A DNA stretch of 64,000 nucleotides from Patescibacteria group bacterium (GTDB taxonomy: Bacteria; Patescibacteriota; Patescibacteriia; JAQUQO01). The notes under the pieces were generated by a model. It did not search any database and was not told the DNA's origin. It was given only the letters and a program-made list of their open reading frames with translations. The stretch is taken from positions 798,343 to 862,342 of the forward strand of contig JAQUQO010000001.1 of the NCBI GenBank assembly GCA_028716045.1, written 5' to 3'. How positions within the stretch are numbered: the stretch's first letter is position 1; every line of letters begins with the position of its first letter. Positions 4,923-63,968 of this stretch are shown here, piece after piece. The position numbers were made by a program, and so were the translations under genes.

Positions 4923-5171
4923 TTATCCTTCTTCTTCGGGGGTTTCGGGCTGTTTTTCTTCTTTAGCGATGTTAAAGTACTTCATGAGTTTTTGTTGGTT
5001 TTTTTCAATCTTTTCCAAGAAATTGAGCACCCACACGAACCCCCCTACTGTAATCACAGTGAGCGACAGAATGCCGTGCATCTGCAATGGAGTCCCCGTT
5101 AGGACAGAAAAAACAAATGACAGCGCCATCCATAGAGTAGCTGCTATAAAAAACCTAGATGTAGAACTCAT
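4923..5171 (-). CDS. Small hydrophobic hypothetical protein.
   Basis: An 82-aa ORF with two predicted TM helices, on the opposite strand between rpe and tkt. Confidence 0.3.
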   Translation of the reverse strand: MSSTSRFFIAATLWMALSFVFSVLTGTPLQMHGILSLTVITVGGFVWVLNFLEKIEKNQQKLMKYFNIAKEEKQPETPEEEG

Positions 5172-8176: not shown

Positions 8177-9169
8177 ATGCCCAAACACAAAATATATATC
8201 ACTAGAAAAATTCCGGCAAATGCCATACTTGCCCTGAAAAAGGCGGGGTTTGCAGTGGACTACTTCCCCAGGGCCGATATTCTAATACCTCGCCAAACTT
8301 TGCTTAAAAAAGTTAAAGGGTGTTCGGCGATTCTTTCTCTTCTCACTGACCCTATAGACGCCAAAGTAATGGATGCCGCCGGCCCTAAATTAAAAATCAT
8401 TTCCAATTATGCCGTGGGTTTTGATAATATTGATGTTGCCGAAGCGAAAAAAAGAAAGATTATCGTCACCAACACGCCCTGCGAAGAAGTGAGCGAGGCC
8501 GTAGCTGAAATGGCCATGACTATGGTGATGGCTTTATCGCGAAAAATCATTCCAGCCGATGAATATACCAAGTCCGGAAAATATAAGGGGTGGGACCCAA
8601 TGCTCTTGTTAGGCAATTCTTTGATGGGCAAAACTTTGGGGATAGTCGGGCTGGGCAGAATCGGCGCGGGGCTGGCTCATCGGGCGGCGGATGGTTTTGG
8701 TTTAAAAATAATTTATAACGATATCCGCCGTAATCCTGAATTTGAAAAAAGATACGGGGCAAAATATGTTTCCCAAGAAAAACTATTGCGGACGGCTGAC
8801 TTTGTTTCTCTGCACGTGCCCTTGTTACCTTCCACGCGCCATTTAATTTCCACCAAAGAATTAAAAATGATGGGAAAAACCGCTTATTTAATTAATACCG
8901 CTCGCGGCCCGATTGTTGATGAACTGGCTTTAAATAAGGCCCTGCTCCGCGGTGATATCGCCGGAGCCGCGATTGATGTCTATGAATGCGAACCCACTAT
9001 TGATTGCCGACCCTACGATGCTTATAGCTTAAAAAAACTAGATAATATTATAATGACTCCGCACATTGCTTCGGCTTCTGTGGAAGCGCGAAACAAAATG
9101 TCCGAAATCGCCGTAAAAAATATTATTAATGTCCTTAGGGGTAAAAAACCATTAACGCCGGCAAAGTAA
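8177..9169 (+). CDS. D-isomer-specific 2-hydroxyacid dehydrogenase (glyoxylate/hydroxypyruvate reductase-like).
   Basis: It has the NAD-binding 'GIVGLGRIGAGLA' motif and the catalytic R/E/H layout 'TARG...HIAS'. Confidence 0.8.
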   Translation: MPKHKIYITRKIPANAILALKKAGFAVDYFPRADILIPRQTLLKKVKGCSAILSLLTDPIDAKVMDAAGPKLKIISNYAVGFDNIDVAEAKKRKIIVTNTPCEEVSEAVAEMAMTMVMALSRKIIPADEYTKSGKYKGWDPMLLLGNSLMGKTLGIVGLGRIGAGLAHRAADGFGLKIIYNDIRRNPEFEKRYGAKYVSQEKLLRTADFVSLHVPLLPSTRHLISTKELKMMGKTAYLINTARGPIVDELALNKALLRGDIAGAAIDVYECEPTIDCRPYDAYSLKKLDNIIMTPHIASASVEARNKMSEIAVKNIINVLRGKKPLTPAK

Positions 9170-22318: not shown

Positions 22319-22383
22319 GAAAGGGGTTTTATATTTGATTTTTTTGGCGGAAAAAGTTATTATGCTTTTGATATCTAAACGCG

Positions 22384-22467
22384 CCTTGGTGGTGAAACTG
22401 GCAGACACGCCAGGCCTAGGACCTGGTGGGGGAAACCCCTTGAGAGTTCGACTCTCTCCCAAGGCAC
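22384..22467 (+). tRNA. tRNA-Leu (anticodon TAG), a long-variable-arm class II tRNA.
   Basis: The acceptor stem GCCTTGG/CCAAGGC, D-arm GTG-AAACTGGCAGA-CAC and anticodon arm CCAGG-CCTAGGA-CCTGG are present. The variable arm is TGGGGGAAACCCCTT and the T-arm is GAGAG-TTCGACT-CTCTC. Position 33 is C, which is unusual. The ORF-track entry 22335.. reads through this tRNA and is 5-prime over-extended. Confidence 0.7.
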
Positions 22468-25079: not shown

Positions 25080-28187
<3,108 letters not shown>

Positions 28188-28264
28188 ATAAACATTGTGT
28201 AAACAATAACTCGTTGCTTTTATTTTAGAGATATCTTCTTGATATAAAAAAGAGGGTATCAGTA

Positions 28265-28373
28265 TCTTGGTGGCTTTGGCGGGAGGGAAACACCTGTTCC
28301 CATCTCGAACACAGCAGTTAAGCCTCCCAGCACCGATGGTAGTCTTTTGTAGGCGAGAGTAGGCCGCCGCCAA
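28265..28373 (+). rRNA. rrf: 5S ribosomal RNA.
   Basis: 'GGUGGCUUUGGCGGGAGGGAAACACCUGUUCCCAUCUCGAACACAG...CCGAUGGUAGU...GCGAGAGUAGG' with terminal helix TTGGTGGC/GCCGCCAA. Confidence 0.85.
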
Positions 28374-28408
28374 GATTTTGATACTCTCTTTTTGTTTTTT
28401 AAAATCGC

Positions 28409-29802: not shown

Positions 29803-29864
29803 AACTTTCGCAGCATCTATAAGCCTCGCTAGTCACAAATGTGATATAGTGAGGCTTTTTCTTT

Positions 29865-30428
29865 TTATTTCAACAATAACATCGCCGCCTCATATTTAGG
29901 CCTGATAATTTCTTTGGACTTATCAAAATGTAATTGTTTCCATTTATTTTCCAATTTTTTTCTGGCAGCTATTTTTGCCTCACCTTGGTCCAGATTTTCA
30001 TAAACAAAGGCCGCTTTGAAAATTCCGGCGATATTATCAAAATTATTCATAACATCGGCTTCGGCCAGAATTTGTTCTTCAATACTTTCACGGGAATTTT
30101 GCTGGGAACCCCGATGATTAAGAATGCACTTTTTAACCAACTCAATTTTTTCAGCAGGATACCCGAGTTCTTTTAATTTTTCTTCCGCAATTTTAGCGCC
30201 GGTCAGGTGATGGTTTTCACGGCCATAAATTATGGAACCTATATCATGCAACCACGCGGCAATCAACATAACCTCTTTATCACCCCCTAATTCATCTGCT
30301 AATTTTTCTACATAGTTGATAACTGGTATAAAATGAAAAATAAAGGGCTCGTAGCCATATTTACTGCTTGGTTTTTTACACTCATTCTCAACAAAATTTT
30401 TAATTTCCTGGACAATATCCATAAACAA
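29865..30428 (-). CDS. HD-domain metal-dependent phosphohydrolase.
   Basis: 'AAWLHDIGS' (H...HD) and a downstream 'D' fit the HD superfamily. The product is 187 aa. Confidence 0.7.
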   Translation of the reverse strand: MFMDIVQEIKNFVENECKKPSSKYGYEPFIFHFIPVINYVEKLADELGGDKEVMLIAAWLHDIGSIIYGRENHHLTGAKIAEEKLKELGYPAEKIELVKKCILNHRGSQQNSRESIEEQILAEADVMNNFDNIAGIFKAAFVYENLDQGEAKIAARKKLENKWKQLHFDKSKEIIRPKYEAAMLLLK

Positions 30429-30469
30429 AGCTAAATTTATTCTTTAGCGGGTAGACAAATCTGTGTTCT

Positions 30470-30958
30470 TTAAACCTGGGCAAAAATAATCATATAATTG
30501 TTGCCATATTTTTTGGCGCATTTCGGGCAATAAGCGTAATGAACATAATAATCTTTAGCTTTCTCTCCTTTGGTGGCCAAGTATTCATCAAGTTGTTTTA
30601 CAAATTTCGGCACCGCGTTATATGGGCCAGCGAAAACTTTGCCGATAAATGTGCCCGAGATATTGGCATTATTCGCGTTCGGCACCGGGCCGGTTACCGA
30701 TAAATAGATTTCCGATTTAAAGGCGCTGGGGTCGCGAAATAATAGCAAAGCATCTTCATGGTTAGTTTCTGCCCTTTTTGAATCTTCAACCATTTTGCAC
30801 ATTTTGGTAACTTTTTTGTTAATCATCGGAGGGAAAGGCATATGAAATAAGGTGGGGATAGTTTCTTTTATAAATGGTTTATTATCCCAATTATATGTTT
30901 TTTGGTCCCATTTTTCGGGATTAAATTTGGGGCAACATTCTTGGTTTTCGTTGGTCAT
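30470..30958 (-). CDS. Hypothetical protein with N-terminal CC and C-terminal CPKC, possibly zinc-binding.
   Basis: A 162-aa ORF with no confident family assignment. Confidence 0.35.
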   Translation of the reverse strand: MTNENQECCPKFNPEKWDQKTYNWDNKPFIKETIPTLFHMPFPPMINKKVTKMCKMVEDSKRAETNHEDALLLFRDPSAFKSEIYLSVTGPVPNANNANISGTFIGKVFAGPYNAVPKFVKQLDEYLATKGEKAKDYYVHYAYCPKCAKKYGNNYMIIFAQV

Positions 30959-30997
30959 ATTTTAGTTATTTTTAAGATTTTGGATTAACACGATTTT

Positions 30998-31055
30998 GTT
31001 TAACGTTTGCGTGTATGTGATGTCGTAGAGTACTCAGGATAGAACCACATATGGG
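30998..31055 (+). repeat. Cassette-junction repeat, copy 1 (TTTAACGTTTGCGTGTATGTGATGTCGTA...ATATGGG).
   Basis: It shares a TAACGTnnGCGTrTATnTGATGTyGTA core and a downstream ATATGGG with copies at 32683 and 33957. It abuts the stop codon of the nucleotidyltransferase gene. Confidence 0.7.
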
Positions 31056-31058
31056 ATG

Positions 31059-31826
31059 TTAGGTTAAAGTTAATTTTGGGCGCAATGTTTTTATCACCTT
31101 AAAATCAAAGATATTTTTTGTTATGTTAAGTTTTTTGGTTAATTTTCTAGCTTCTTTTTCTCCGCCCACGTAATCAAACAACTTTTGCACGTTCCTTTTA
31201 TATCTAGATTTTTCTAGCGAACGGAGCGCAATTAATAAGTTATCAATTTCTTTTTTTGAAGGTTGTTTAAACCCTTTAGACATAAATTTAAGACAGGCAA
31301 AAAGATTTGCCGGATGAGCGATGACGTTTACCCTGAGTTTTTTATTTTTTAAATCCGACATGGCATTTGGTAATGAAACAACTTTTTTAGGCCAGTTTTT
31401 TGAGGTGGCCTCTTTCAGAGATAAGGCGAATCCATTAATAGTAAAGTTGGCGTTATTTTTAAGGTTTTTAAAAATACTTTTTTCTCGTGAAATATGTATG
31501 TCAAGAATTAGATAATCGTTGAACCGGTGTTTTGGTTTTTCAACTAATTTCTTTTTTAATACAACCTCATTTTTTCTTTTTATTTTGCCGTAGATAAATC
31601 CCCGCTTTCTTAAATTCTCTATAAATTTTTTCTTATCACCAATAAGGACTAAGTCATAATCACGTTGGGGGAGAGTGGCGCCAAAAATGTTAAAATAGAG
31701 CGCATTTCTTAGAGCGCCCCCTATTAAAAAGATTTTTGTATTTTTAGGGATAGCCGACTTAACATCAACGAGTATGTTAAATATTTTTAAATTTTTCATG
31801 AAAACCGGCAGTTTTTTTAATTCCAT
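31059..31826 (-). CDS. Minimal nucleotidyltransferase of the polyA-polymerase/CCA-adding-enzyme head family.
   Basis: 'IFLIGGALRNALYFNIFG...RDYDLVL' matches GGxxRD...DxD, and 'NANFTINGFAL' matches the RRDFTINA motif of CCA/polyA polymerases. The product is only 255 aa. Confidence 0.6.
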   Translation of the reverse strand: MELKKLPVFMKNLKIFNILVDVKSAIPKNTKIFLIGGALRNALYFNIFGATLPQRDYDLVLIGDKKKFIENLRKRGFIYGKIKRKNEVVLKKKLVEKPKHRFNDYLILDIHISREKSIFKNLKNNANFTINGFALSLKEATSKNWPKKVVSLPNAMSDLKNKKLRVNVIAHPANLFACLKFMSKGFKQPSKKEIDNLLIALRSLEKSRYKRNVQKLFDYVGGEKEARKLTKKLNITKNIFDFKVIKTLRPKLTLT

Positions 31827-31867
31827 ACGGAGTATTTATAAATTAACTTTTTATTAAATTGGCGTCA

Positions 31868-31900
31868 GCGCGTAACGTATGCGATGAAGAAAGGTCGCGC
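31868..31900 (+). repeat. Truncated cassette-junction repeat (copy 5) embedded in a GCGCG/CGCGC hairpin.
   Basis: GCGCG-TAACGTATGCGATGAAGAAAGGT-CGCGC carries the TAACGTATGCG core of the repeat family. Confidence 0.5.
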
Positions 31901-31911
31901 GCATTTCGTTT

Positions 31912-32280
31912 TTAATTTTTTTTCTTTTTGCACCAGCCAACCAGAAATAAAATCCCGATGAGGAATGCCGGCCCGGCAATTATTAAAGAATAAGACAATG
32001 CAGACCATTGAAATTTTGGGGTTATTACGATGTCCGCTAAATACAACAGTCCGGCCAGAATAAAAGTTACTCCTCCCACTATTTCGTATTTCCACGATAT
32101 CAGCAGGACAATTAATAAAATAAGCGCTGGGATATTGTGCATAAATAATCCTAAAATCGTCCCCCAAAATCCATAATTTCCATCAAAAATATCCAATGAA
32201 AACAGCATTAGGAATAAAATAAAGATGATTGATAAAATTCTTGGCGTCCAGTAGATAAATTGGTTAATCTTTTTTTCCAT
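31912..32280 (-). CDS. Integral membrane protein (hypothetical, four TM helices).
   Basis: A hydrophobic ORF. The start is taken at MEKKINQF, the internal Met of the 31912..32373 track ORF. Confidence 0.4.
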   Translation of the reverse strand: MEKKINQFIYWTPRILSIIFILFLMLFSLDIFDGNYGFWGTILGLFMHNIPALILLIVLLISWKYEIVGGVTFILAGLLYLADIVITPKFQWSALSYSLIIAGPAFLIGILFLVGWCKKKKN

Positions 32281-32391
32281 TTTAAAATGGGTTATTTGAT
32301 AAACAGTATATTGCCTTTTCTTTTTTATACAAAATGCTTTTAGAGAGGGGGTGGCGAGCGTGTTACTTGCCACCCCGTTTTTGTCGGGTTT

Positions 32392-32613
32392 TCAATCAAA
32401 GGCGGCGGCGAAACCCACCAGCACCGTGACCAGCACGACGCAGAGGCCTACGCAGAGACCCCATGGGCCAGGAATGATTAGAGCGGTAAAGGTGCCGACC
32501 ACCAGCCCTTTGGCAAGGTTGGTTCTTAGCACCTTCAACTCGGAATCGTTGGGGGTTATTCCCCAATCAAGATACCATACTAATATCCCAGCAAGATAGC
32601 ATAAAATTTTCAT
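32392..32613 (-). CDS. Small membrane protein (hypothetical).
   Basis: A 73-aa ORF with two TM helices. Confidence 0.35.
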   Translation of the reverse strand: MKILCYLAGILVWYLDWGITPNDSELKVLRTNLAKGLVVGTFTALIIPGPWGLCVGLCVVLVTVLVGFAAAFD

Positions 32614-32682
32614 GGATTCCTCCTGGTTACAGGTTTCATAATTGCGGACCCTCTAAAAGCATTTTGTAAAAGAGCAATATTT

Positions 32683-32766
32683 CCGATAACGTATGCGTGT
32701 ATCTGATGTCGTATTAGCAATATGGGCGAAAGGTAGAGAGGAATTAAAGGGGTGAAGGCCCGTAGC
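32683..32766 (+). repeat. Cassette-junction repeat copy 2 plus the conserved 43-nt GC-rich element directly downstream of the fic stop codon.
   Basis: CCGATAACGTATGCGTGTATCTGATGTCGTATTAGCAATATGGG is followed by GGGCGAAAGGTAGAGAGGAATTAAAGGGGTGAAGGCCCGTAGCC. The 43-nt element is about 85% identical to 34129-34171. Confidence 0.7.
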
Positions 32767-32784
32767 CAGTACTCCAATTTAGTT

Positions 32785-33732
32785 TTAGTTTTTTCTTTGC
32801 CGAGTTCTATTTTTCAGATACCGCTCAGTAGTTTCTTTTGACGTTAACCAATTTCTACCTTCTTTATATGCTTCTAATTTTCCCTGTCTAGCCAACAAGT
32901 TTAGATATTTGGCAGAAAAAGGTGTGGTTTTAGATATTTCAGCTAGTGGTACAAATTTCTCCTGTTTTTGGGTTGAAGGAGTTAAAGTTTTGAGGTAAAT
33001 ATCAAGAGAGCGCTCAATGGATTGAGCGATAAATTTTACCAGTGGTTCATACTTACCGCTGTCTGCCTTTTCCAGCACGTCATAATATTTTTTGCGGTCA
33101 TTCTTCAATATAATCACCAACGGATAGCCGGCTTGCATCAATAGTAAATTCATAGTTAGTCGTGCCGTTCTGCCGTTACCGTCAAAAAATGGGTGAATGT
33201 GTACTAATTTGTGATGGAGCAAAGCAGTCAGCTCAACAACGCCAATCTTATTCTTTTGCGCATTGAGCCAATTAATTAAATCCCTCATTTTTTGTGGCAC
33301 TTGCAAGGCGTCTGGTGGCGTGTGTTTTGCTCCGCCGATAATTACATTGGCGTTTCTGTATCGGCCAGCCCACTCTTTGTCCGTTTCTTGAGTAATAATT
33401 TGATGCAAATTTCGTATGAGCATTTCAGAGATAGTGCGCTTTTTATCCTTATCTACCAGGTCGTACAAATATTCCAACGCGGCTTGATGGTCTTTGGCCT
33501 CCAAATGGTCTTTTAAGGGCTTTCCTTTTATAGTTATGCCCTCGTTGATAACTAAAAAGGTCTCTTTTAAAGTTAAAGAGTTTCCTTCAATAGCATTTGA
33601 GTTGTAGGTCATTTCAATTTGAAACTTTTCTCGAAGTTTTTGTACCGCAGATTTCGGTAGGGGACGAAGTTTGTTGAGTTTGGCTAGTTTTTCTTCCAGT
33701 CGAGCTTTTATTATTGGCGATAGGTAAGTCAT
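32785..33732 (-). CDS. fic: Fic-family AMPylase (class II, with N-terminal inhibitory helix) carrying a C-terminal wHTH-like tail.
   Basis: It has the canonical Fic motif 'HPFFDGNGRTARL' and the inhibitory motif 'SNAIEGN' (S/TxxxE(G/N)). A minus-strand promoter (TTGACC-16-TATACT) lies at 33768-33795. Confidence 0.85.
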   Translation of the reverse strand: MTYLSPIIKARLEEKLAKLNKLRPLPKSAVQKLREKFQIEMTYNSNAIEGNSLTLKETFLVINEGITIKGKPLKDHLEAKDHQAALEYLYDLVDKDKKRTISEMLIRNLHQIITQETDKEWAGRYRNANVIIGGAKHTPPDALQVPQKMRDLINWLNAQKNKIGVVELTALLHHKLVHIHPFFDGNGRTARLTMNLLLMQAGYPLVIILKNDRKKYYDVLEKADSGKYEPLVKFIAQSIERSLDIYLKTLTPSTQKQEKFVPLAEISKTTPFSAKYLNLLARQGKLEAYKEGRNWLTSKETTERYLKNRTRQRKN

Positions 33733-33767
33733 AGAAAATGCTTAATATGGTTTAGGTAAGTATTCAT

Positions 33768-33795
33768 AGTATACCATATTAAGGAATTAGGTCAA
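33768..33795 (-). promoter_or_regulatory. Sigma70-like promoter for fic (TTGACC-16-TATACT on the minus strand).
   Basis: I read it on the reverse complement, about 36 nt upstream of the fic ATG. Confidence 0.5.
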
Positions 33796-33938
33796 GTTTG
33801 AGTATTTATTTGTCATTTTTGAGCGACCCCGAGCTGGGTCGAGGGGGGAGCAAAAAAATACCTTTTCCCCTTTATAAAATAAAGATAAAAATAAAATCGT
33901 TAATTTTTTAAAGCCACGCCCGCTCAAAGCGGGCGAAA

Positions 33939-34171
33939 GAAAAGGAATATTTCAGCTAACGTCCGCGTATATCTGATGTTTTACGGAGCGTAGCGGAGCA
34001 AAATATGGGTGGAGGCTCTGGAAGAGCCGAAACCAGATATACGCTGTTATATGATGTACATGTTTTCCTTTGATTTCTGAAAGAAATTGCTTTTACAAAA
34101 GAAAGATCCGATTTTGTTTTTCCGTTTTGGGCGAAGGGCAGAGGGGAATTAAAGGGGTGAATGCCCGAGCC
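33939..34171 (+). repeat. Cassette-junction repeat copy 3 (elaborated) with the 43-nt GC-rich element abutting the helicase-fusion stop codon.
   Basis: GAAAAGGAATATTTCAGCTAAC (an exact 22-mer shared with 37329-37350) + GTCCGCGTATATCTGATGT...ATATGGG. Internal hairpins follow, including GCGTATATCTG/CAGATATACGC, then GGGCGAAGGGCAGAGGGGAATTAAAGGGGTGAATGCCCGAGCC. Confidence 0.7.
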
Positions 34172-34183
34172 CCAAACACCTTA

Positions 34184-37100
34184 TTATTTTACTTTCTGTT
34201 TTGCTGTTTTCCATCTCTCCAAACTACTTGGTCCAAAGATTTTAATAGCATTTTCCTCTGTTATTTTTAGAAGCTCAGTACTTGAAATAATACCTTCTTT
34301 AAATAGAACTAAATATTCACCTCTTTCTAGATTCAATCCTGCTTCAAGTAAATCAAGAGCTTCGGTTGGTATGCCAACTTCAAGTTGTTTTAAGAGTTTT
34401 TCCATTTCTTCCTCACTCAACCCCCCACCTAAGAACATCACGTTGGAAATTTCATATGCTGACCTAAGATAAAAACGTGTTCCATCTGCAAATTTAATAA
34501 TATCACCATACCCAATTTTACCTTGATAAGGTGTTGTGGAATAATTCGTTTCAATTGTTTCTACTGGTGCCCCATGAATCCAGTCGAATAAAATTGCCGC
34601 TCGTTTACATCTTGCGTAGTAACTAAATTGATCAGGTACAAAATTTTGTAGTGCACGCACTCTGTCACTACCATATTTTTGGACAGCTTCTTGTTGTCTA
34701 CTACTTTCTTTTGTTCCACGCTTCATTACTGGTGTGTAAATTCTGTCTAAATCTGGTAACGCCTGTATCAGGATCATCAGTCCTTCAGCATTGAGTTTTT
34801 TAGGATCTTCTTTTTTTAGCATTTCTACCAGTCTCATCGCAGATGGAAAGGATAATGCTGAACGCCCGCATGCCCTGCCAAGTAACGTTAATTGGACCAA
34901 GAGGCCTTCTTGTTCAATAAGTTGTAATTGGATCATTTGGCCAAGAAGATCCGTAACTCTTTGGTTAATTTCAGCGTGCCAATTAGGATTTGCTTTGGTT
35001 GCTAAGTAGCCGCCATATGTATTTGCCAACAACCTCGGTATTTCATTTTTTGGAATTTGATTAATTTGGGCGAGCAACCGAATGATCCAAGTTTCTATAT
35101 GATTAGGATCAAATGATGAAGTTAACTTCTCTAATTCGCCTACAACGTAGCTGTTAAATAAACGTTCTCTATCGTAGCTTGTTTTTGCGTAAATTATTGA
35201 TTTACCTTCTTCGTGGAAACCAACTCTACCGGCACGGCCAGCCATGTTTTTATATTCTGCTACTGTGAAATTGCGTCCATCTTCACCCAAAAATTCTTGC
35301 TCTGCGATAATTACTGTTGATGCAGGTGTGTTAATCCCTGCTGCTACCGTTGTTGTTGCGCCTAAAACACGAACTTTGCTTTTTGGATTACGGTAGAATT
35401 GTTCAACAATATTTTTTTCTTCACGACTCAAGTTTGTATTGTGAAATGCAGTACCTCCTTGAAGACATTGTCTTAACTTCTCTGATGTTGATGATAAATC
35501 CTGATTTGGTAATTTCGAAAGCGCATCAAGTGCTGGCGGCAGGTGAAGATCGTTGGCCAGATAATTTGCAACACCTTCTGAATTGCCTCGCATGTTTCTG
35601 AAAACAATAATTTTTTCATTTTCGTTGGTGAGTAATATTTTTTTCACCAGAGGCACGATAACATCCTGCGCGCTTGGTTGATCACGTCTTTGTTGTATTT
35701 CGTGGGGCTGGAGTAACTGTTCTGTTTTTCTGTTGCCATCCTTATCAATAAATTCATAGGTACCACTTCTGTCTATTACTCCCTCTATTAAAGGAACGGG
35801 GCGATTAGTGGTTACCAATTTATCGCATTGCAACCATTTATCTAGGTCATTAATTCCCCCGATTACAGCTGATAAAGCTATGACTTGTGGCTGTATTCCC
35901 TTTTCGCGACTAGTTAGTAAATAGGTTAATAACAACTCTACAACTATCCCCCTATTCGGATCTGCAATAAATTGCGCTTCATCAATTACAATTAACCCGA
36001 TATTGTTTAGAACCCACGGATTGCCAATGGCAAGATTTAAAAACATTTCGTAGGTTAAAAGTGCTATGTCATATTTCCCGCTTACGAATGGTTTTGTCTG
36101 GTCAACATAGTCACCAGTACATCGCACTATACGCATACCGAGTTCCTTTCCGTATAATTCTTCAAATTGTTCGTATTTTTCGCTTGTTAATGCGCGATAT
36201 GGAAACAGGAAAACAGTTTTTCTTCCTTCGGTAATGGCTTTTGTAGCTGCTAATTCGCCAATGAAGGTTTTACCAGAGCTTGTAGGCGCTACTACTACCA
36301 AAGAATTATTTTCGAAAATGCGCTTTTCGTTAACTGCCAGAAGTTGTAAATCGTTGAGGCCATCCTTAAAATTTGATTCCCATATATTAAGGATATTTTG
36401 AGGGATTCCAAAAATTTTAAGATCTTTAATTGCTTTTGTAATTTTAGTACCTACTGCTTCTGGAAAATACTTAAAATAGTTTTTACCTTTTTTGAGGACT
36501 GGTATTTTAAATCCACCTTTTATTGAGCCAAATAAAACGGGCGTTTGCGTTATACCTAATCGATTCGCTTCAGCATTTACATGCTCCATTACTTTAGAAA
36601 CAATACTCACCACATCGATTTGTGTACCACCATCCTGTAAAATGTCTATTAGTGCTTTTGTTAAGAGGCCATGACCACTGCCAGGAGTTTCATAGGCCAA
36701 TTGATTTACATCCGAGGCTGCTATTAGAATTCTTCCTTCCCCAGTAAATTGTTTGAAAGTATTACCTGGATCCCTCGGTATAGGGCTATTTTCAAGTACT
36801 TTTGCTGGTGCTCCGCCGCTAAAACAGCAATCAAGTACAAATAATATCGTCTTTGCTTTAGAAGACTTAAATAGATTAGCAATTTCTTCAACTGATATTG
36901 TGGATTTTTCCAAATTAGCTAAAGCCGTATTGTATGTTACAAGTTGGTGAGCATGTGTGCCATGACCAGAAAAAGATATTATTACAGCATCTTCTTCTCC
37001 TGCTTTGTTCAATGTCTCTGCGAGCATTGATTGAATGGCTTCTATGGTAGCATTTTCATCAACCAATAAACTCGCCTGCATGTCCGCTATAGTATCGCTA

Positions 37101-37204
37101 AAGAGCGAGAAGAGTGCGGTTGCATCTTTGCGTGCACCTGTTAGGTCTCGAATGTTGGGGTCGATGTGTTTATCGATTCCTATAAAATTTCCGTATATTG
37201 CCAT
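34184..37204 (-). CDS. Fusion of an N-terminal caspase-like (peptidase C14/CHAT-type, His-Cys dyad) domain to an SF2 Ski2/Hel308-family helicase, with a C-terminal winged-helix/HhH-like region. Candidate defence or abortive-infection effector.
   Basis: The caspase region has 'ISFSGHGTH' (His) and 'ILFVLDCCFSGG' (Cys). The helicase has Walker A 'APTSSGKT', DExx 'VIDEAQF' and motif VI 'MAGRAGRVG', plus the Hel308/Ski2-like 'AFHNTNLSREEK...GATTTVAAGINTPASTVII'. About 300 C-terminal residues resemble Hel308 domains 4-5. Confidence 0.75.
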   Translation of the reverse strand: MAIYGNFIGIDKHIDPNIRDLTGARKDATALFSLFSDTIADMQASLLVDENATIEAIQSMLAETLNKAGEEDAVIISFSGHGTHAHQLVTYNTALANLEKSTISVEEIANLFKSSKAKTILFVLDCCFSGGAPAKVLENSPIPRDPGNTFKQFTGEGRILIAASDVNQLAYETPGSGHGLLTKALIDILQDGGTQIDVVSIVSKVMEHVNAEANRLGITQTPVLFGSIKGGFKIPVLKKGKNYFKYFPEAVGTKITKAIKDLKIFGIPQNILNIWESNFKDGLNDLQLLAVNEKRIFENNSLVVVAPTSSGKTFIGELAATKAITEGRKTVFLFPYRALTSEKYEQFEELYGKELGMRIVRCTGDYVDQTKPFVSGKYDIALLTYEMFLNLAIGNPWVLNNIGLIVIDEAQFIADPNRGIVVELLLTYLLTSREKGIQPQVIALSAVIGGINDLDKWLQCDKLVTTNRPVPLIEGVIDRSGTYEFIDKDGNRKTEQLLQPHEIQQRRDQPSAQDVIVPLVKKILLTNENEKIIVFRNMRGNSEGVANYLANDLHLPPALDALSKLPNQDLSSTSEKLRQCLQGGTAFHNTNLSREEKNIVEQFYRNPKSKVRVLGATTTVAAGINTPASTVIIAEQEFLGEDGRNFTVAEYKNMAGRAGRVGFHEEGKSIIYAKTSYDRERLFNSYVVGELEKLTSSFDPNHIETWIIRLLAQINQIPKNEIPRLLANTYGGYLATKANPNWHAEINQRVTDLLGQMIQLQLIEQEGLLVQLTLLGRACGRSALSFPSAMRLVEMLKKEDPKKLNAEGLMILIQALPDLDRIYTPVMKRGTKESSRQQEAVQKYGSDRVRALQNFVPDQFSYYARCKRAAILFDWIHGAPVETIETNYSTTPYQGKIGYGDIIKFADGTRFYLRSAYEISNVMFLGGGLSEEEMEKLLKQLEVGIPTEALDLLEAGLNLERGEYLVLFKEGIISSTELLKITEENAIKIFGPSSLERWKTAKQKVK

Positions 37205-37328
37205 GTTGTGTGGATTTGGTTTATTTAAAATCGTTTTCGGAGCGAAGCGTAGAAAACACCTTATACCCCTCTATAATTAATGAAAAAGAAATTTTAAAAT
37301 TTTTTAAAACAATTGGGCGATAGCCCAA

Positions 37329-37360
37329 AAAAGAAAAGGAATATTTCAGCTAACTACCTA
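37329..37360 (+). repeat. Truncated/diverged cassette-junction repeat (copy 4) adjacent to the recombinase gene. Candidate primary attachment site.
   Basis: It is identical to copy 3 over GAAAAGGAATATTTCAGCTAAC, then diverges (TACCTATATCCTAAC). It lies 70 nt upstream of the tyrosine recombinase ATG. Confidence 0.55.
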
Positions 37361-37432
37361 TATCCTAACTTGTTTAAAATTTGCTTTATTTATGCTATAA
37401 TTTTAACATAAATGTGAAATCAAAAGCAAGTT

Positions 37433-38272
37433 ATGAATACACATTATCGGCCGAGTCGGGACCCGATAATTTTGTTAAAACAAGAGATGAAGTTACGTGG
37501 TTTCAGCGACAAAACAATCAAAAGCTATATCCATTATATTAATGATTGCTTGCGTTTTGCTGGTACGGACCCGCGCAGCGCGTCTCAAAAAGATGTGCGG
37601 GCATATTTGGAATACTTAGCGGACGAGAATCTTTCTGCTTCCACTATTAATACTGCTTATAGCGCCCTGCTGTTTTATTTTGGCAAAATTCTAAACCGTA
37701 ATTTTTTTGTCAAAATACCGCGCATTAAGAAAGAAAAACATTTGCCCGTTGTATTGTCTCACGAAGAAATTAATAGAATGATTGGGCTGTCTGTTAATCC
37801 TAAGCATAGATGTATTTTATCCCTTCTTTATGGCACCGGCGTGCGGGTGAGCGAATTGACGCATATCAAAATGTGCGATATTGATTTGGACCGTATGGTT
37901 TTGCGGATATATCAAGGCAAGGGGAAAAAAGATCGCTTAACAATTTTGCCGGCAACTTTGAAAAAAATATTATCCCAGCAGCAGGGATTGAAAACATCGG
38001 AAGATTTTTTGTTTACCAATGGCCGGGGCGGAAGATTAACCGAGGCCAGCATCCAAAAAATTGTCGCTTTGGCTGCCGCCAAGGCCGGAATAGGGAAAAC
38101 AGTGTCGCCCCATACCCTGCGCCACAGTTTTGCCACCCATTTGCTTGAAAATGGAACTGATATAAGGTATATTCAGGAATTATTGGGGCATGCCAAATTG
38201 CAGACCACCCAAATTTACACGCATGTGGCGAGCAATAATATTAAAAACATAACAAGTCCGCCGGATTTATAA
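37433..38272 (+). CDS. Tyrosine site-specific recombinase (XerC/XerD-like).
   Basis: It has an N-terminal SAM-like core-binding domain and the catalytic R..HxxR..Y region 'SPHTLRHSFATHLLENGTDIRYIQELLGH...TQIYTHV'. It lacks the extra IntI-specific insertion. An extended -10 TGCTATAAT lies at 37394-37402. Confidence 0.85.
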   Translation: MNTHYRPSRDPIILLKQEMKLRGFSDKTIKSYIHYINDCLRFAGTDPRSASQKDVRAYLEYLADENLSASTINTAYSALLFYFGKILNRNFFVKIPRIKKEKHLPVVLSHEEINRMIGLSVNPKHRCILSLLYGTGVRVSELTHIKMCDIDLDRMVLRIYQGKGKKDRLTILPATLKKILSQQQGLKTSEDFLFTNGRGGRLTEASIQKIVALAAAKAGIGKTVSPHTLRHSFATHLLENGTDIRYIQELLGHAKLQTTQIYTHVASNNIKNITSPPDL

Positions 38273-63455: not shown

Positions 63456-63968
63456 ATTGTAAGCAATCCTGTAAGCCGAATTTTGTACCGATTTTGTTGT
63501 TTTCGCAGACAAAATCAGCGATAATCATCTATCTGGTTCCGATATTGCTATCGGAATCAAGCGAGCTACTTTTAATCCTGCCGCTCACAGGCGACGGGAC
63601 TTTGCTCTTGCGCCGGACAGGGTTTGCCGCTGCACCTTGTCACCAAGGGCAGAATAGAGTGGCCTGACGACCTCTCTATACTTTTCACCTTTGTCCTGTC
63701 ACTCGTGAGTGACGGGATAGTATTGTCTCTGTGGCACTTTCCCTGGGCTTAGGAAACAACGCAAACATCTCGAGAATGTTTAGGTTATTTCTTGCTCCCG
63801 GTTGCCGTTAGCAACTGTCCTTTTGACGGCGTTCGGACTTTCCTCCCCCACGCCCTTCAGCTTTTAGTTATATAATTTATTACTTGTATTTTACTTTTTA
63901 AGACATAAAGATTTACATCTAGCTGCAAAAGCTGAAAGGTGTGGGGGCGATTATCCGGATTACTTATA
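63456..63968 (-). ncRNA. rnpB: RNase P RNA (bacterial type, with an AT-rich insertion in the P3 region).
   Basis: The reverse complement has the P4 5-prime strand GGGGGAGGAAAGTCCGAAC and the P4 3-prime strand ACAAAATTCGGCTTACAGG. AAGCCGAA and TTCGGCTT pair exactly around a bulged U. P1 pairs TAAGTAATCCGG with CAGGATTGCTTAC. A GGTGAAAAG (P10-12-like) element is present. The region is GC-rich and free of ORFs. Confidence 0.8.

Follow-up and report, generated by a model that had tools for sequence, protein, structure and literature searches.

We analysed a stretch of 64,000 nucleotides (nt; hereafter, the window) from a Patescibacteria group bacterium whose closest relatives are Candidatus Magasanikbacteria (assembly GCA_028716045.1, contig JAQUQO010000001.1, positions 798,343 to 862,342 of the forward strand). 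It contains a gene array with a tyrosine recombinase gene at one end, and we regard this locus, with good confidence, as an integron-like gene-capture platform. Computation established how the recombination sites are built and which of their strands folds, that they are associated with the recombinase, that the ends of cassettes are complementary, and that one relative has undergone a precise natural insertion.

All genes between positions 29865 and 37204 of the window lie on the minus strand, and the recombinase gene (37433-38272) is transcribed in the opposite direction. The G+C content of the array (0.374) is lower than in any of 113 sliding 7.5-kb segments of the 64 kb (minimum 0.375, median 0.42), with single array genes ranging from 0.31 to 0.52. 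Gene coordinates and composition agree with the initial annotation, which was made from the sequence of the window and described AT-rich minus-strand cargo beside a divergent tyrosine recombinase. The same annotation compared the locus to an integron because of its geometry, that is, a divergent recombinase, a primary site and cassettes with their own junction elements. This part of the comparison is retained here, while the accompanying statement that the repeats between the genes are not attC-like hairpins is not, as one of them forms a strong hairpin and the family to which they belong is structured, covarying and strand-specific.

Folded sites beside recombinase homologues

The repeats occur far above chance expectation and are restricted to the array region. 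The core TAACGTnnGCGTrTATnTGATGT is present in three copies in the window (at 31001, 32687 and 33957; none expected), the 25-mer AAAGAAAAGGAATATTTCAGCTAAC has exact copies at 33936 and 37330, and a 39-nt motif is found at 32724 and 34129. No Rfam family matched the repeats at either the gathering or permissive thresholds.

Eighty loci encoding homologues of the recombinase were compared (fetched loci are labelled L, and recombinase homologues P). In the loci of the candidate phyla radiation (CPR) with enough upstream sequence (L005, L009, L010, L011, L012, L014 and L016), the genes upstream of the recombinase are small, are encoded on the opposite strand and show no relation to the cargo of the window, and the spacers between them represent one element family with a length of about 55 to 230 nt. 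Read on the recombinase strand, the 5' half of the element consists of ATTTC-xyz-TAA|C (the bar marks the crossover), GTnn, an 11-nt arm, RWGT, a variable hairpin, ATTTGGG and nGRAG; the 3' half consists of a second variable hairpin, yGWARCC, the complementary arm, T and GTTA-x'y'z'-GATGT. The halves pair in an outer helix formed by the R boxes, which are RYYYAAC/GTTRRRY-like, followed by an asymmetric 4-nt/1-nt internal loop, an inner helix of 11 bp and a three-way junction, for which RNAalifold yields conserved unpaired nucleotides. By analogy, the internal loop is probably the equivalent of the extrahelical bases of attC.

This anatomy unites the two repeat cores that the initial annotation had listed as separate elements. 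The TAACGT..GATGT core comprises the R box together with the arm on the 5' side of the inner helix. The 25-mer recurs in L010 as its reverse complement (with two mismatches), which makes up the 3' end of the site carried by the cassette there; since this complementarity spans the whole 25-mer, the latter can be assigned to one strand of an extended outer helix, namely the 5' one. Both cores thus belong to a single site.

The pairing is well conserved. In 15 seed sites, 97.8% of the helix cells are paired, whereas sliding the partner by 1-3 columns leaves 26-43% paired, and compensatory changes are seen in nine of the 11 inner-stem pairs. In an alignment of 42 sites, which was fitted to the model with ungapped arms, 95.5% of the cells are paired (30-45% in the slid controls) and ten of the 11 inner-stem pairs are compensatory (155 cells); the covariation score of these sites was reached by none of 500 shuffles.

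A G·T pair on one strand is an A·C mismatch on the other. The paired columns contain 25 G·T cells and five A·C cells, the latter being restricted to the outermost pair, and this excess of G·T over A·C indicates selection on the strand antisense to the cargo. Folding of the strand antisense to the open reading frames (ORFs) excludes terminator or untranslated-region structures of the mRNA. In integrons, the bottom strand of attC is the recombination substrate (PMC4792948, PMC9668308).

A covariance model built from the relatives has exactly three matches in the whole window, all within the array, and 43 matches in 1.15 Mb. One of the 43 is in L006, a locus obtained through a site motif and retrieved in reverse (the tblastn match to the recombinase is on the plus strand). 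The other 42 are distributed over the window and 17 further homologue loci, and 38 of them are located upstream of the recombinase on the same strand. Hosts of the site-bearing loci are Magasanikbacteria-type CPR bacteria and eight DPANN archaea (Woesearchaeota, Nanoarchaeota and Aenigmatarchaeota). The four remaining sites (L053 12129-13032 and L054 12946-15423, in metagenome-assembled genomes (MAGs) labelled Bacillota and Parvicellaceae) lie downstream of the recombinase on the opposite strand and may represent an inverted arrangement. Model-positive sites antisense to ORFs were also found in three IMG/VR contigs of viral class (L111 1721-2637, L112 11714-11865 and L113 9563-10509), the last of which has four sites within 1 kb; the retrieved parts of these contigs contain no recombinase.

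Such structures could in principle be antisense RNAs or non-autonomous mobile repeats, comparable to miniature inverted-repeat transposable elements (MITEs) or repetitive extragenic palindromes (REPs), which have gathered in a variable region. The unpaired nucleotides of the three-way junction (AAGT, ATTTGGG, GRAG, GWARCC) are RNA-like, the lack of an Rfam match leaves room for an undescribed RNA, and there are ORF-poor clusters of sites, for example in L113. We consider this explanation very improbable. A dispersed pattern was not observed, as all window matches are confined to the array and matches in the homologue loci are upstream of the recombinase except in L053 and L054; the orientation to the recombinase is fixed; and breakpoints exactly in the R box together with matching triplets at the unit ends (see below) are the signature of a recombination site. 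Linkage to the recombinase and the junction rule also led us to reject a MITE with terminal inverted repeats as an interpretation of 33957-34052. A diversity-generating retroelement, considered for the 85-nt repeat pair, was rejected because the differences between the copies are not adenine-specific.

Cassette insertion and the state of the array

If cassettes circularise, the 3' triplet of a site is expected to match, in reverse complement, the 5' triplet of the junction that follows in the direction of the recombinase. This match was found at 20 of 29 junctions, including six of six in L010 and five of six in L009. In the controls, matches were seen in 4 of 33 cases with the own 5' triplet and in 4 of 23 cases with the adjacent junction away from the recombinase; 10,000 shuffles gave at most 11 matches and never 20. 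Some relatives (L006, L008, L011, L012, L013 and L088-L095) additionally have a second, GC-rich type of site, TAA|T-GGGGCCGCG...CGCGGCCCC-ATT. These relatives also contain ORF-less hairpin units between the cassettes and the primary site, and the same rule of end matching is obeyed there.

Contigs encoding recombinase P0070 (287 amino acids) have constant downstream genes (YebC, RuvC, GAPDH and PGK). In L104 and L100 the junction beside this recombinase reads ...ATA-TAA|C-AGGCTATATC, and in L098, L099 and L102 a 5.7-kb unit with the Mod and Res genes of a Type III restriction-modification system is inserted exactly at TAA|C. The unit begins with a complete site and ends with GTA-TAA, the complement of its own GTTA-TAC, and its two junctions share just 7 nt, TATAACA. 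Two contigs of the P0070 group from other samples start exactly at TATAAC. As read from the assembled contigs, this case is a clean site-specific insertion. Both forms, with and without the Type III cassette, are present together in Saanich Inlet samples.

In the same lineage (L098 10928-12396), YebC and the Holliday-junction resolvase RuvC directly follow the recombinase on the same strand, which may be relevant to junction resolution. Another observation concerns L052, a Woesearchaeota-labelled MAG from Saanich Inlet: positions 510-629 are 82% identical over 125 nt to the Type III cassette site of L098, L099 and L102 (e.g. L102 2790-2913). This likeness to CPR contigs, some of which are also from Saanich Inlet, could reflect an exchange of cassette sites between domains or an error of binning.

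Contigs with an identical recombinase P0054 (280 amino acids) differ in their first cassettes, which are of three kinds: acetyltransferase followed by hydrolase, hydrolase alone (one contig), and methyltransferase with MutH. Presence or absence of cassettes in relatives, which the initial annotation had suggested looking for, was thus found beside identical recombinases. The invariance of gene order and repeats in all relatives, which would have refuted the annotation, is not seen, albeit in species other than that of the window.

Two further conserved elements accompany the cassettes. A 5' leader of about 130 nt is common to cassettes with unrelated cargo, both in the window (37205-37353 and 33733-33959) and in L004, L010, L011, L014, L089, L098 and L104. 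Its AGGGG..A.A..G is invariant, its hairpin shows covariation and leads into a T-run, and the leader as a whole could be a promoter, a 5' untranslated region or an attenuator. The leader of cassette 1 is 92% identical over 203 nt to that of L004 and 86% identical to that of L010, and the cargo differs in both. A second motif (32724-32762 and 34129-34167) is located between the cargo stop codon and the recombination site and has a variable stem and a conserved loop AGAGGGG..AGGGGTGAAT; similar motifs with other stems were seen in L011 (~700-745), L014 (~8350-8400), L016 (~140-175) and L098 (~4960-5010).

These elements resemble gene regulatory signals, and the repeats as a whole might therefore be ordinary paralogous regulatory regions of a genomic island, the recombinase being incidental. 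The promoter-like and terminator-like features of the leader, the position of the second motif right after ORF stops, and the fact that two of the three window copies do not fold are in line with such a view. We nevertheless judge it extremely improbable: the folding strand is antisense to the genes, the sites accompany recombinase homologues in both CPR and DPANN, the ends are complementary at 20 of 29 junctions, and the 5.7-kb unit next to an identical recombinase was inserted exactly in the R box.

Returning to an integron-like organisation of the window, crossovers at TAA|C define the boundaries listed in Table 1, which delimit cassette 1 (33960-37353, 3394 nt, caspase-helicase), cassette 2 (32690-33959, 1270 nt, Fic) and a composite third unit (31004-32689, 1686 nt, three genes). 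The initial annotation had counted five units separated by related repeats. The related repeats are real, whereas what can be demonstrated of the unit count is three site boundaries plus the recombinase-proximal junction. No distal site was found beyond the HD gene for the pair of Bact_hydrolase and HD genes; only a bidirectional terminator-like hairpin is present there (~29821-29858).

The site between cassettes 1 and 2 is intact. Its R boxes are at 33957-33960 and 34049-34052, and within 33957-34052 TAAC-GTCC-GCGTATATCTG pairs with CAGATATACGC-T-GTTA, all 11 positions of the arms being paired; folding gives z-scores of -4.1 (RNA parameters) and -2.5 (DNA parameters). In the other two of the three window sites the 3' arm is lost. 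The copy at 32675-32796 shows no significant fold with RNA or DNA parameters, and its 5' flank shares 92.6% identity with L009 9242-9293 over 54 nt. The distal copy (30989-31076) retains just six of 11 Watson-Crick pairs in the inner stem.

Remnants in the third unit suggest that former cassettes have been fused. A 21-nt inverted repeat with 95% complementarity (32325-32345 and 32651-32671) surrounds the gene of a 73-amino-acid membrane protein, and the inner stem is absent at the left end of the unit 32286-32690, meaning that the site is truncated there. The G+C content of this gene (0.52 within an array of 0.37) and its position between the inverted repeats suggest a separate foreign origin.

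Since the only intact site is the first one, most of the array is probably no longer mobile. Judged by its sites, the array would have been built by the system and be largely fixed by now, fossilised in part, with excision looking feasible for cassette 1 only. For this cassette, the predicted excision junction is GCGGGCGAAAGAAAAGGAATATTTCAGCTAA|CTACCTATATCC, and the predicted circle or duplication junction is TTGGGCGATAGCCCAAAAAAGAAAAGGAATATTTCAGCTAA|CGTCCGCGTATATCTG.

At the DNA level, the window cargo has a match in the relatives for DUF7670 alone; the leader, the site and the attI-like primary site also match. The proteins Fic and helicase were found only in the source genome and in two short-read assemblies of it, in which the helicase gene stands alone on contigs (34118-37294 and 34137-37303). 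We considered contig ends at 37326/37327 as a sign of population heterogeneity and dropped this reading, as those assemblies are fragmented everywhere. A scan of metagenomes for a 30-mer that is specific to the window and was taken from the recombinase-side flank of the junction gave no match, and a scan with a degenerate junction pattern gave four chance matches with neither a recombinase nor sites.

The cargo is of the conflict type, as the initial annotation had proposed: Fic corresponds to SoFic (Table 1), and the helicase fusion matches a HamB-like helicase in PADLOC (1.5e-31) and a caspase domain (3.7e-18). PADLOC additionally reports a weak Cas3-HD match in the window cargo. Cargo genes of the relatives encode restriction-modification systems, Fic, HicA, an Apyc1-like protein and an acetyltransferase. 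These similarities suggest that the cargo may defend against phage.

The recombinase and its primary site

The recombinase passes the NCBIfam model XerA_Arch (NF040815; 248.9 bits, cutoff 220), whose product name is 'site-specific tyrosine recombinase/integron integrase', and fails the integron-integrase model TIGR02249 (233 bits, cutoff 265), to which it aligns in two stretches. Its best match among solved structures is VchIntIA (2a3v, E 2.5e-48), in two pieces that skip IntI residues 184-240; XerA is second (5e-45). At residues 187-203, where IntI has an extra helix, the AlphaFold model (pLDDT 82.8) shows short strands only, and in Foldseek XerA and IntI are ranked together with XerA (5hxy) as the top fold match. 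The TIGR02249 score, the skipped segment and the model agree with the initial annotation that the IntI-specific insertion is missing. The catalytic residues R138, K163/K166, H227, R230, H253 and Y262 are invariant in 24 homologues, all 24 of which match the XerA_Arch and integron-integrase models about equally. From its residues, the protein is thus predicted to be a catalytically complete IntI/Xer-like recombinase without the IntI-specific (I2) domain.

The primary site is located between the recombinase gene and the array. Alignment of the 260 nt that precede the recombinase gene in 15 lineages gave an identity of 0.61 to the right of AA|C, towards the recombinase, and of 0.30 on the cargo side (-40 to -13). 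In two pairs of loci with identical recombinases, the sequences are 100% identical to the right of the crossover and 38-40% identical to the left. The consensus of the primary site is yAA|C-TACCTTTATnCC-AAC, followed by a promoter-like TG-extended -10 element (TGnTAtAAT) kept in the relatives. The TAAC-N-NNNNN-TAT spacing of the primary site equals that of the 3' half of the folded site when read as its complement; on this reading, the two sites, one double-stranded and the other folded, would offer similar surfaces. No outward promoter was identified at attI; many cassettes instead carry the conserved leader with its promoter-like sequence.

The affinity of the enzyme to XerA underlies the strongest rival explanation, namely that the recombinase is the single housekeeping Xer protein of the lineage, that the adjoining site is dif, and that elements exploiting Xer, similar to integrative mobile elements exploiting Xer (IMEX) or to pdif modules, have piled up beside it. 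In XerS systems, dif adjoins the recombinase gene. The XerA_Arch score and the fold match to 5hxy count for this explanation; moreover, such recombinases are currently annotated or classified as Xer, and Xer-like recombinases of 'Candidate phyla' are filed as presumed Xer (PMC8138268). However, the junction consists of two direct AAC boxes 15 nt apart, with no dyad and no 11-6-11 inverted pair, and the cumulative GC skew increases to either side of the locus without turning within the 64-kb window. The sites measure 55-230 nt and have covarying stems and a G·T bias, neither of which would be expected of double-stranded Xer sites, and all have one orientation, whereas pdif modules alternate. 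We consider it unlikely that Xer and dif explain the locus, although the roles are not mutually exclusive and a dual role is possible.

The integron-like mechanism that we propose is as follows. The recombinase most likely joins a double-stranded primary site, located beside its own promoter, to a folded single-stranded site at the far end of each circular cassette. Integration at TAA|C would orient the cargo so that it reads away from the recombinase and would leave the site of the cassette in the distal position, and repeated integrations would stack the cassettes. Expression would probably start from the conserved leader borne by the cassettes. The substrate is presumed to be single-stranded DNA rather than RNA, and resolution of the junction is likewise presumed.

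Several observations weigh against this proposal. The recombinase lacks the domain with which canonical integrases recognise folded attC, and since it passes the XerA cutoff, it could also, or solely, be a chromosome-dimer resolvase; that it catalyses cassette recombination is suggested by its association with the sites. The conserved unpaired motifs of the three-way junction have no counterpart in attC, and the alignments would fit a folded DNA strand as well as an antisense RNA. Because the flanking repeats measure about 200 nt, the presence or absence of the P0054 acetyltransferase may be due to homologous recombination, and MAG assemblies across repeats can be chimeric. The end-complementarity rule is obeyed at neither of two junctions of the window's own array, which together with the decay of two of the three sites makes activity in this genome doubtful. 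A second sample of the species of the window was not found, the nearest recombinase being 76% identical.

Table 1. Features of the array and of the recombinase region (coordinates of the window; crossovers are predicted)
Feature	Coordinates	Strand	Evidence and remarks
HD protein	29865-30428	minus	Pfam; neighbours the array, cassette status undemonstrated
Bact_hydrolase (PF20603)	30470-30958	minus	Pfam; neighbours the array, cassette status undemonstrated
Decayed distal site	30989-31076	plus	Covariance model, 30.6 bits; crossover 31003/31004
NTase-like protein, weak PolyA_pol-type	31059-31826	minus	Pfam
Possible half-site remnant GCGTAACGTATGCGATGAAG	31866-31905		Within the 31059-32280 unit; read by eye, missed by the model; low confidence
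DUF7670 membrane protein	31912-32280	minus	Pfam
Putative former single-gene cassette (73-amino-acid membrane protein)	32286-32690	minus	Between both strands of an extended outer helix
Membrane protein, 73 amino acids	32392-32613	minus	G+C content 0.52
Decayed site, 5' half intact, 3' arm lost	32675-32796	plus	32.7 bits; crossover 32689/32690
Fic-domain protein, cargo of cassette 2	32785-33732	minus	Pfam Fic 1.5e-23; PADLOC SoFic 1.7e-38
Leader (5') of cassette 2 (Fic), ends in the 25-mer	33733-33959	minus	Homologous to the cassette 1 leader over ~95 nt
Sole intact attC-like folded site	33945-34064	plus	Covariance model, 108 bits, E 2.6e-26; crossover 33959/33960
Second conserved motif, stem with loop AGAGGGGAATTAAAGGGGTGAAT, 3' of ORF stop	34106-34190	plus	72% identical to 32701-32785
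Caspase (Peptidase_C14) and DEAD/Hel308-like helicase fusion, 1006 amino acids, cargo of cassette 1	34184-37204	minus	Pfam, NCBIfam, PADLOC
Leader (5') of cassette 1, includes the 25-mer 37330-37354	37205-37353	minus	25-mer exactly repeats 33936-33960
attI-like primary site TAA|C-TACCTATATCC-TAAC (TAAC TACC TATATCC TAAC)	37351-37369	plus	Crossover 37353/37354
Putative recombinase promoter: TTTAAA, 17 nt, TG-extended TATAAT	37373-37401	plus	Consensus scan
Tyrosine recombinase, 279 amino acids, IntI/XerA-like	37433-38272	plus	Pfam Phage_integrase 1.3e-40 and SAM-like N-terminal domains

The array is flanked on the HD side by the genes of the 23S rRNA (25081-28189) and the 5S rRNA (28266-28375), a nucleotidyltransferase gene and a His-phosphatase-like gene, and on the recombinase side by a TIGR00375-family gene and MiaB. 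The match to the 23S rRNA spans 3109 nt compared to 2925 positions of the model, and an RNase P match (63456-63966) spans 511 nt compared to 367 positions, both pointing to sizeable insertions. A tRNA-Leu at 22383-22467 was predicted by ARAGORN (anticodon tag) and was not reported by Rfam at the gathering threshold.

Relation to integrons and Xer systems

The locus is an integron in its logic. It is outside the integron family as currently defined, because the domain that defines the integrase was tested for and is absent. Whether these loci represent a distinct integron-type lineage common to CPR and DPANN, with a minimal Xer/IntI-like recombinase lacking the I2 domain and with single-stranded sites containing a three-way junction, is in our estimate evenly balanced. 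Such a lineage would be either a surviving stage that preceded IntI or an independent invention, and would serve ultra-small symbionts as a main route of defence-gene exchange, possibly across domains.

CPR bacteria and DPANN archaea have tiny genomes with few recognised mobile elements. If confirmed, a dedicated site for gene capture that is filled with restriction-modification, Fic, toxin-antitoxin and helicase-type systems would be important for their biology, and the compact pair of recombinase and site is a possible tool. The IntI-specific domain is held to enable the use of folded single-stranded attC (PMC4792948, PMC9668308); if the same logic operates without it, the origin of integrons becomes directly testable. 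The system might also provide the partner enzyme for some cassette clusters without an integrase. Judging from the definition of archaeal IntI in the available text of PMC9668308, tools that require the IntI domain would miss these loci as complete integrons. In the literature on integrons or attC in Patescibacteria, CPR and DPANN, our coverage of which is incomplete, we found no description of such a system; a prior description may exist.

Sedentary chromosomal integrons, such as the superintegron of V. cholerae with VchIntIA, share with the present locus the divergent recombinase, the one-directional array and insertion into a primary site that neighbours the recombinase gene, the insertion point being AA|C (G|TT on the complementary strand). 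Also shared are sites conserved in structure over sequence, in which the antisense strand folds and asymmetric unpaired bases lie by the R box, complementary cassette ends, and cargo rich in defence and toxin-type genes. In contrast to integrons, the recombinase described here has no I2 domain and scores below the integron-integrase cutoff, and the spacers, compared by eye, measure 4 nt/1 nt, as against about 5/5 in the attCs of the PMC9668308 supplement. The inner helix is a regular one of 11 bp, a three-way junction takes the place of the free variable loop, the outer helix extends up to about 25 bp, many cassettes have their own conserved leader, and the hosts are CPR and DPANN.

Archaeal integrons (Ghaly et al. 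2022, PMC9668308) were described with six IntIs for 539 attCs in 75 genomes, most of the arrays being without IntI. Cassette arrays in DPANN and other archaea are a shared feature, but the attCs reported there have the canonical geometry and the six integrases have the IntI domain, whereas the sites analysed here adjoin XerA-like recombinases without this domain. The supplement text, in the portion available, contains neither the DPANN accessions studied here nor the TAACGT motif.

The single-recombinase systems XerA/dif, XerS/difSL and XerH/difH resemble the present one in recombinase size, fold and family score, and differ from it in that here there is no 11-6-11 palindrome, no turn of the GC skew, and partner sites are folded and borne by the cargo. 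Finally, the pdif modules of Acinetobacter and IMEX elements are likewise gene modules bounded by sites of Xer-type enzymes. However, these are alternating double-stranded sites of 28 bp or single integrated phages, without the structural covariation, the strand-specific folding and the dedicated adjacent recombinase that characterise the family described here.

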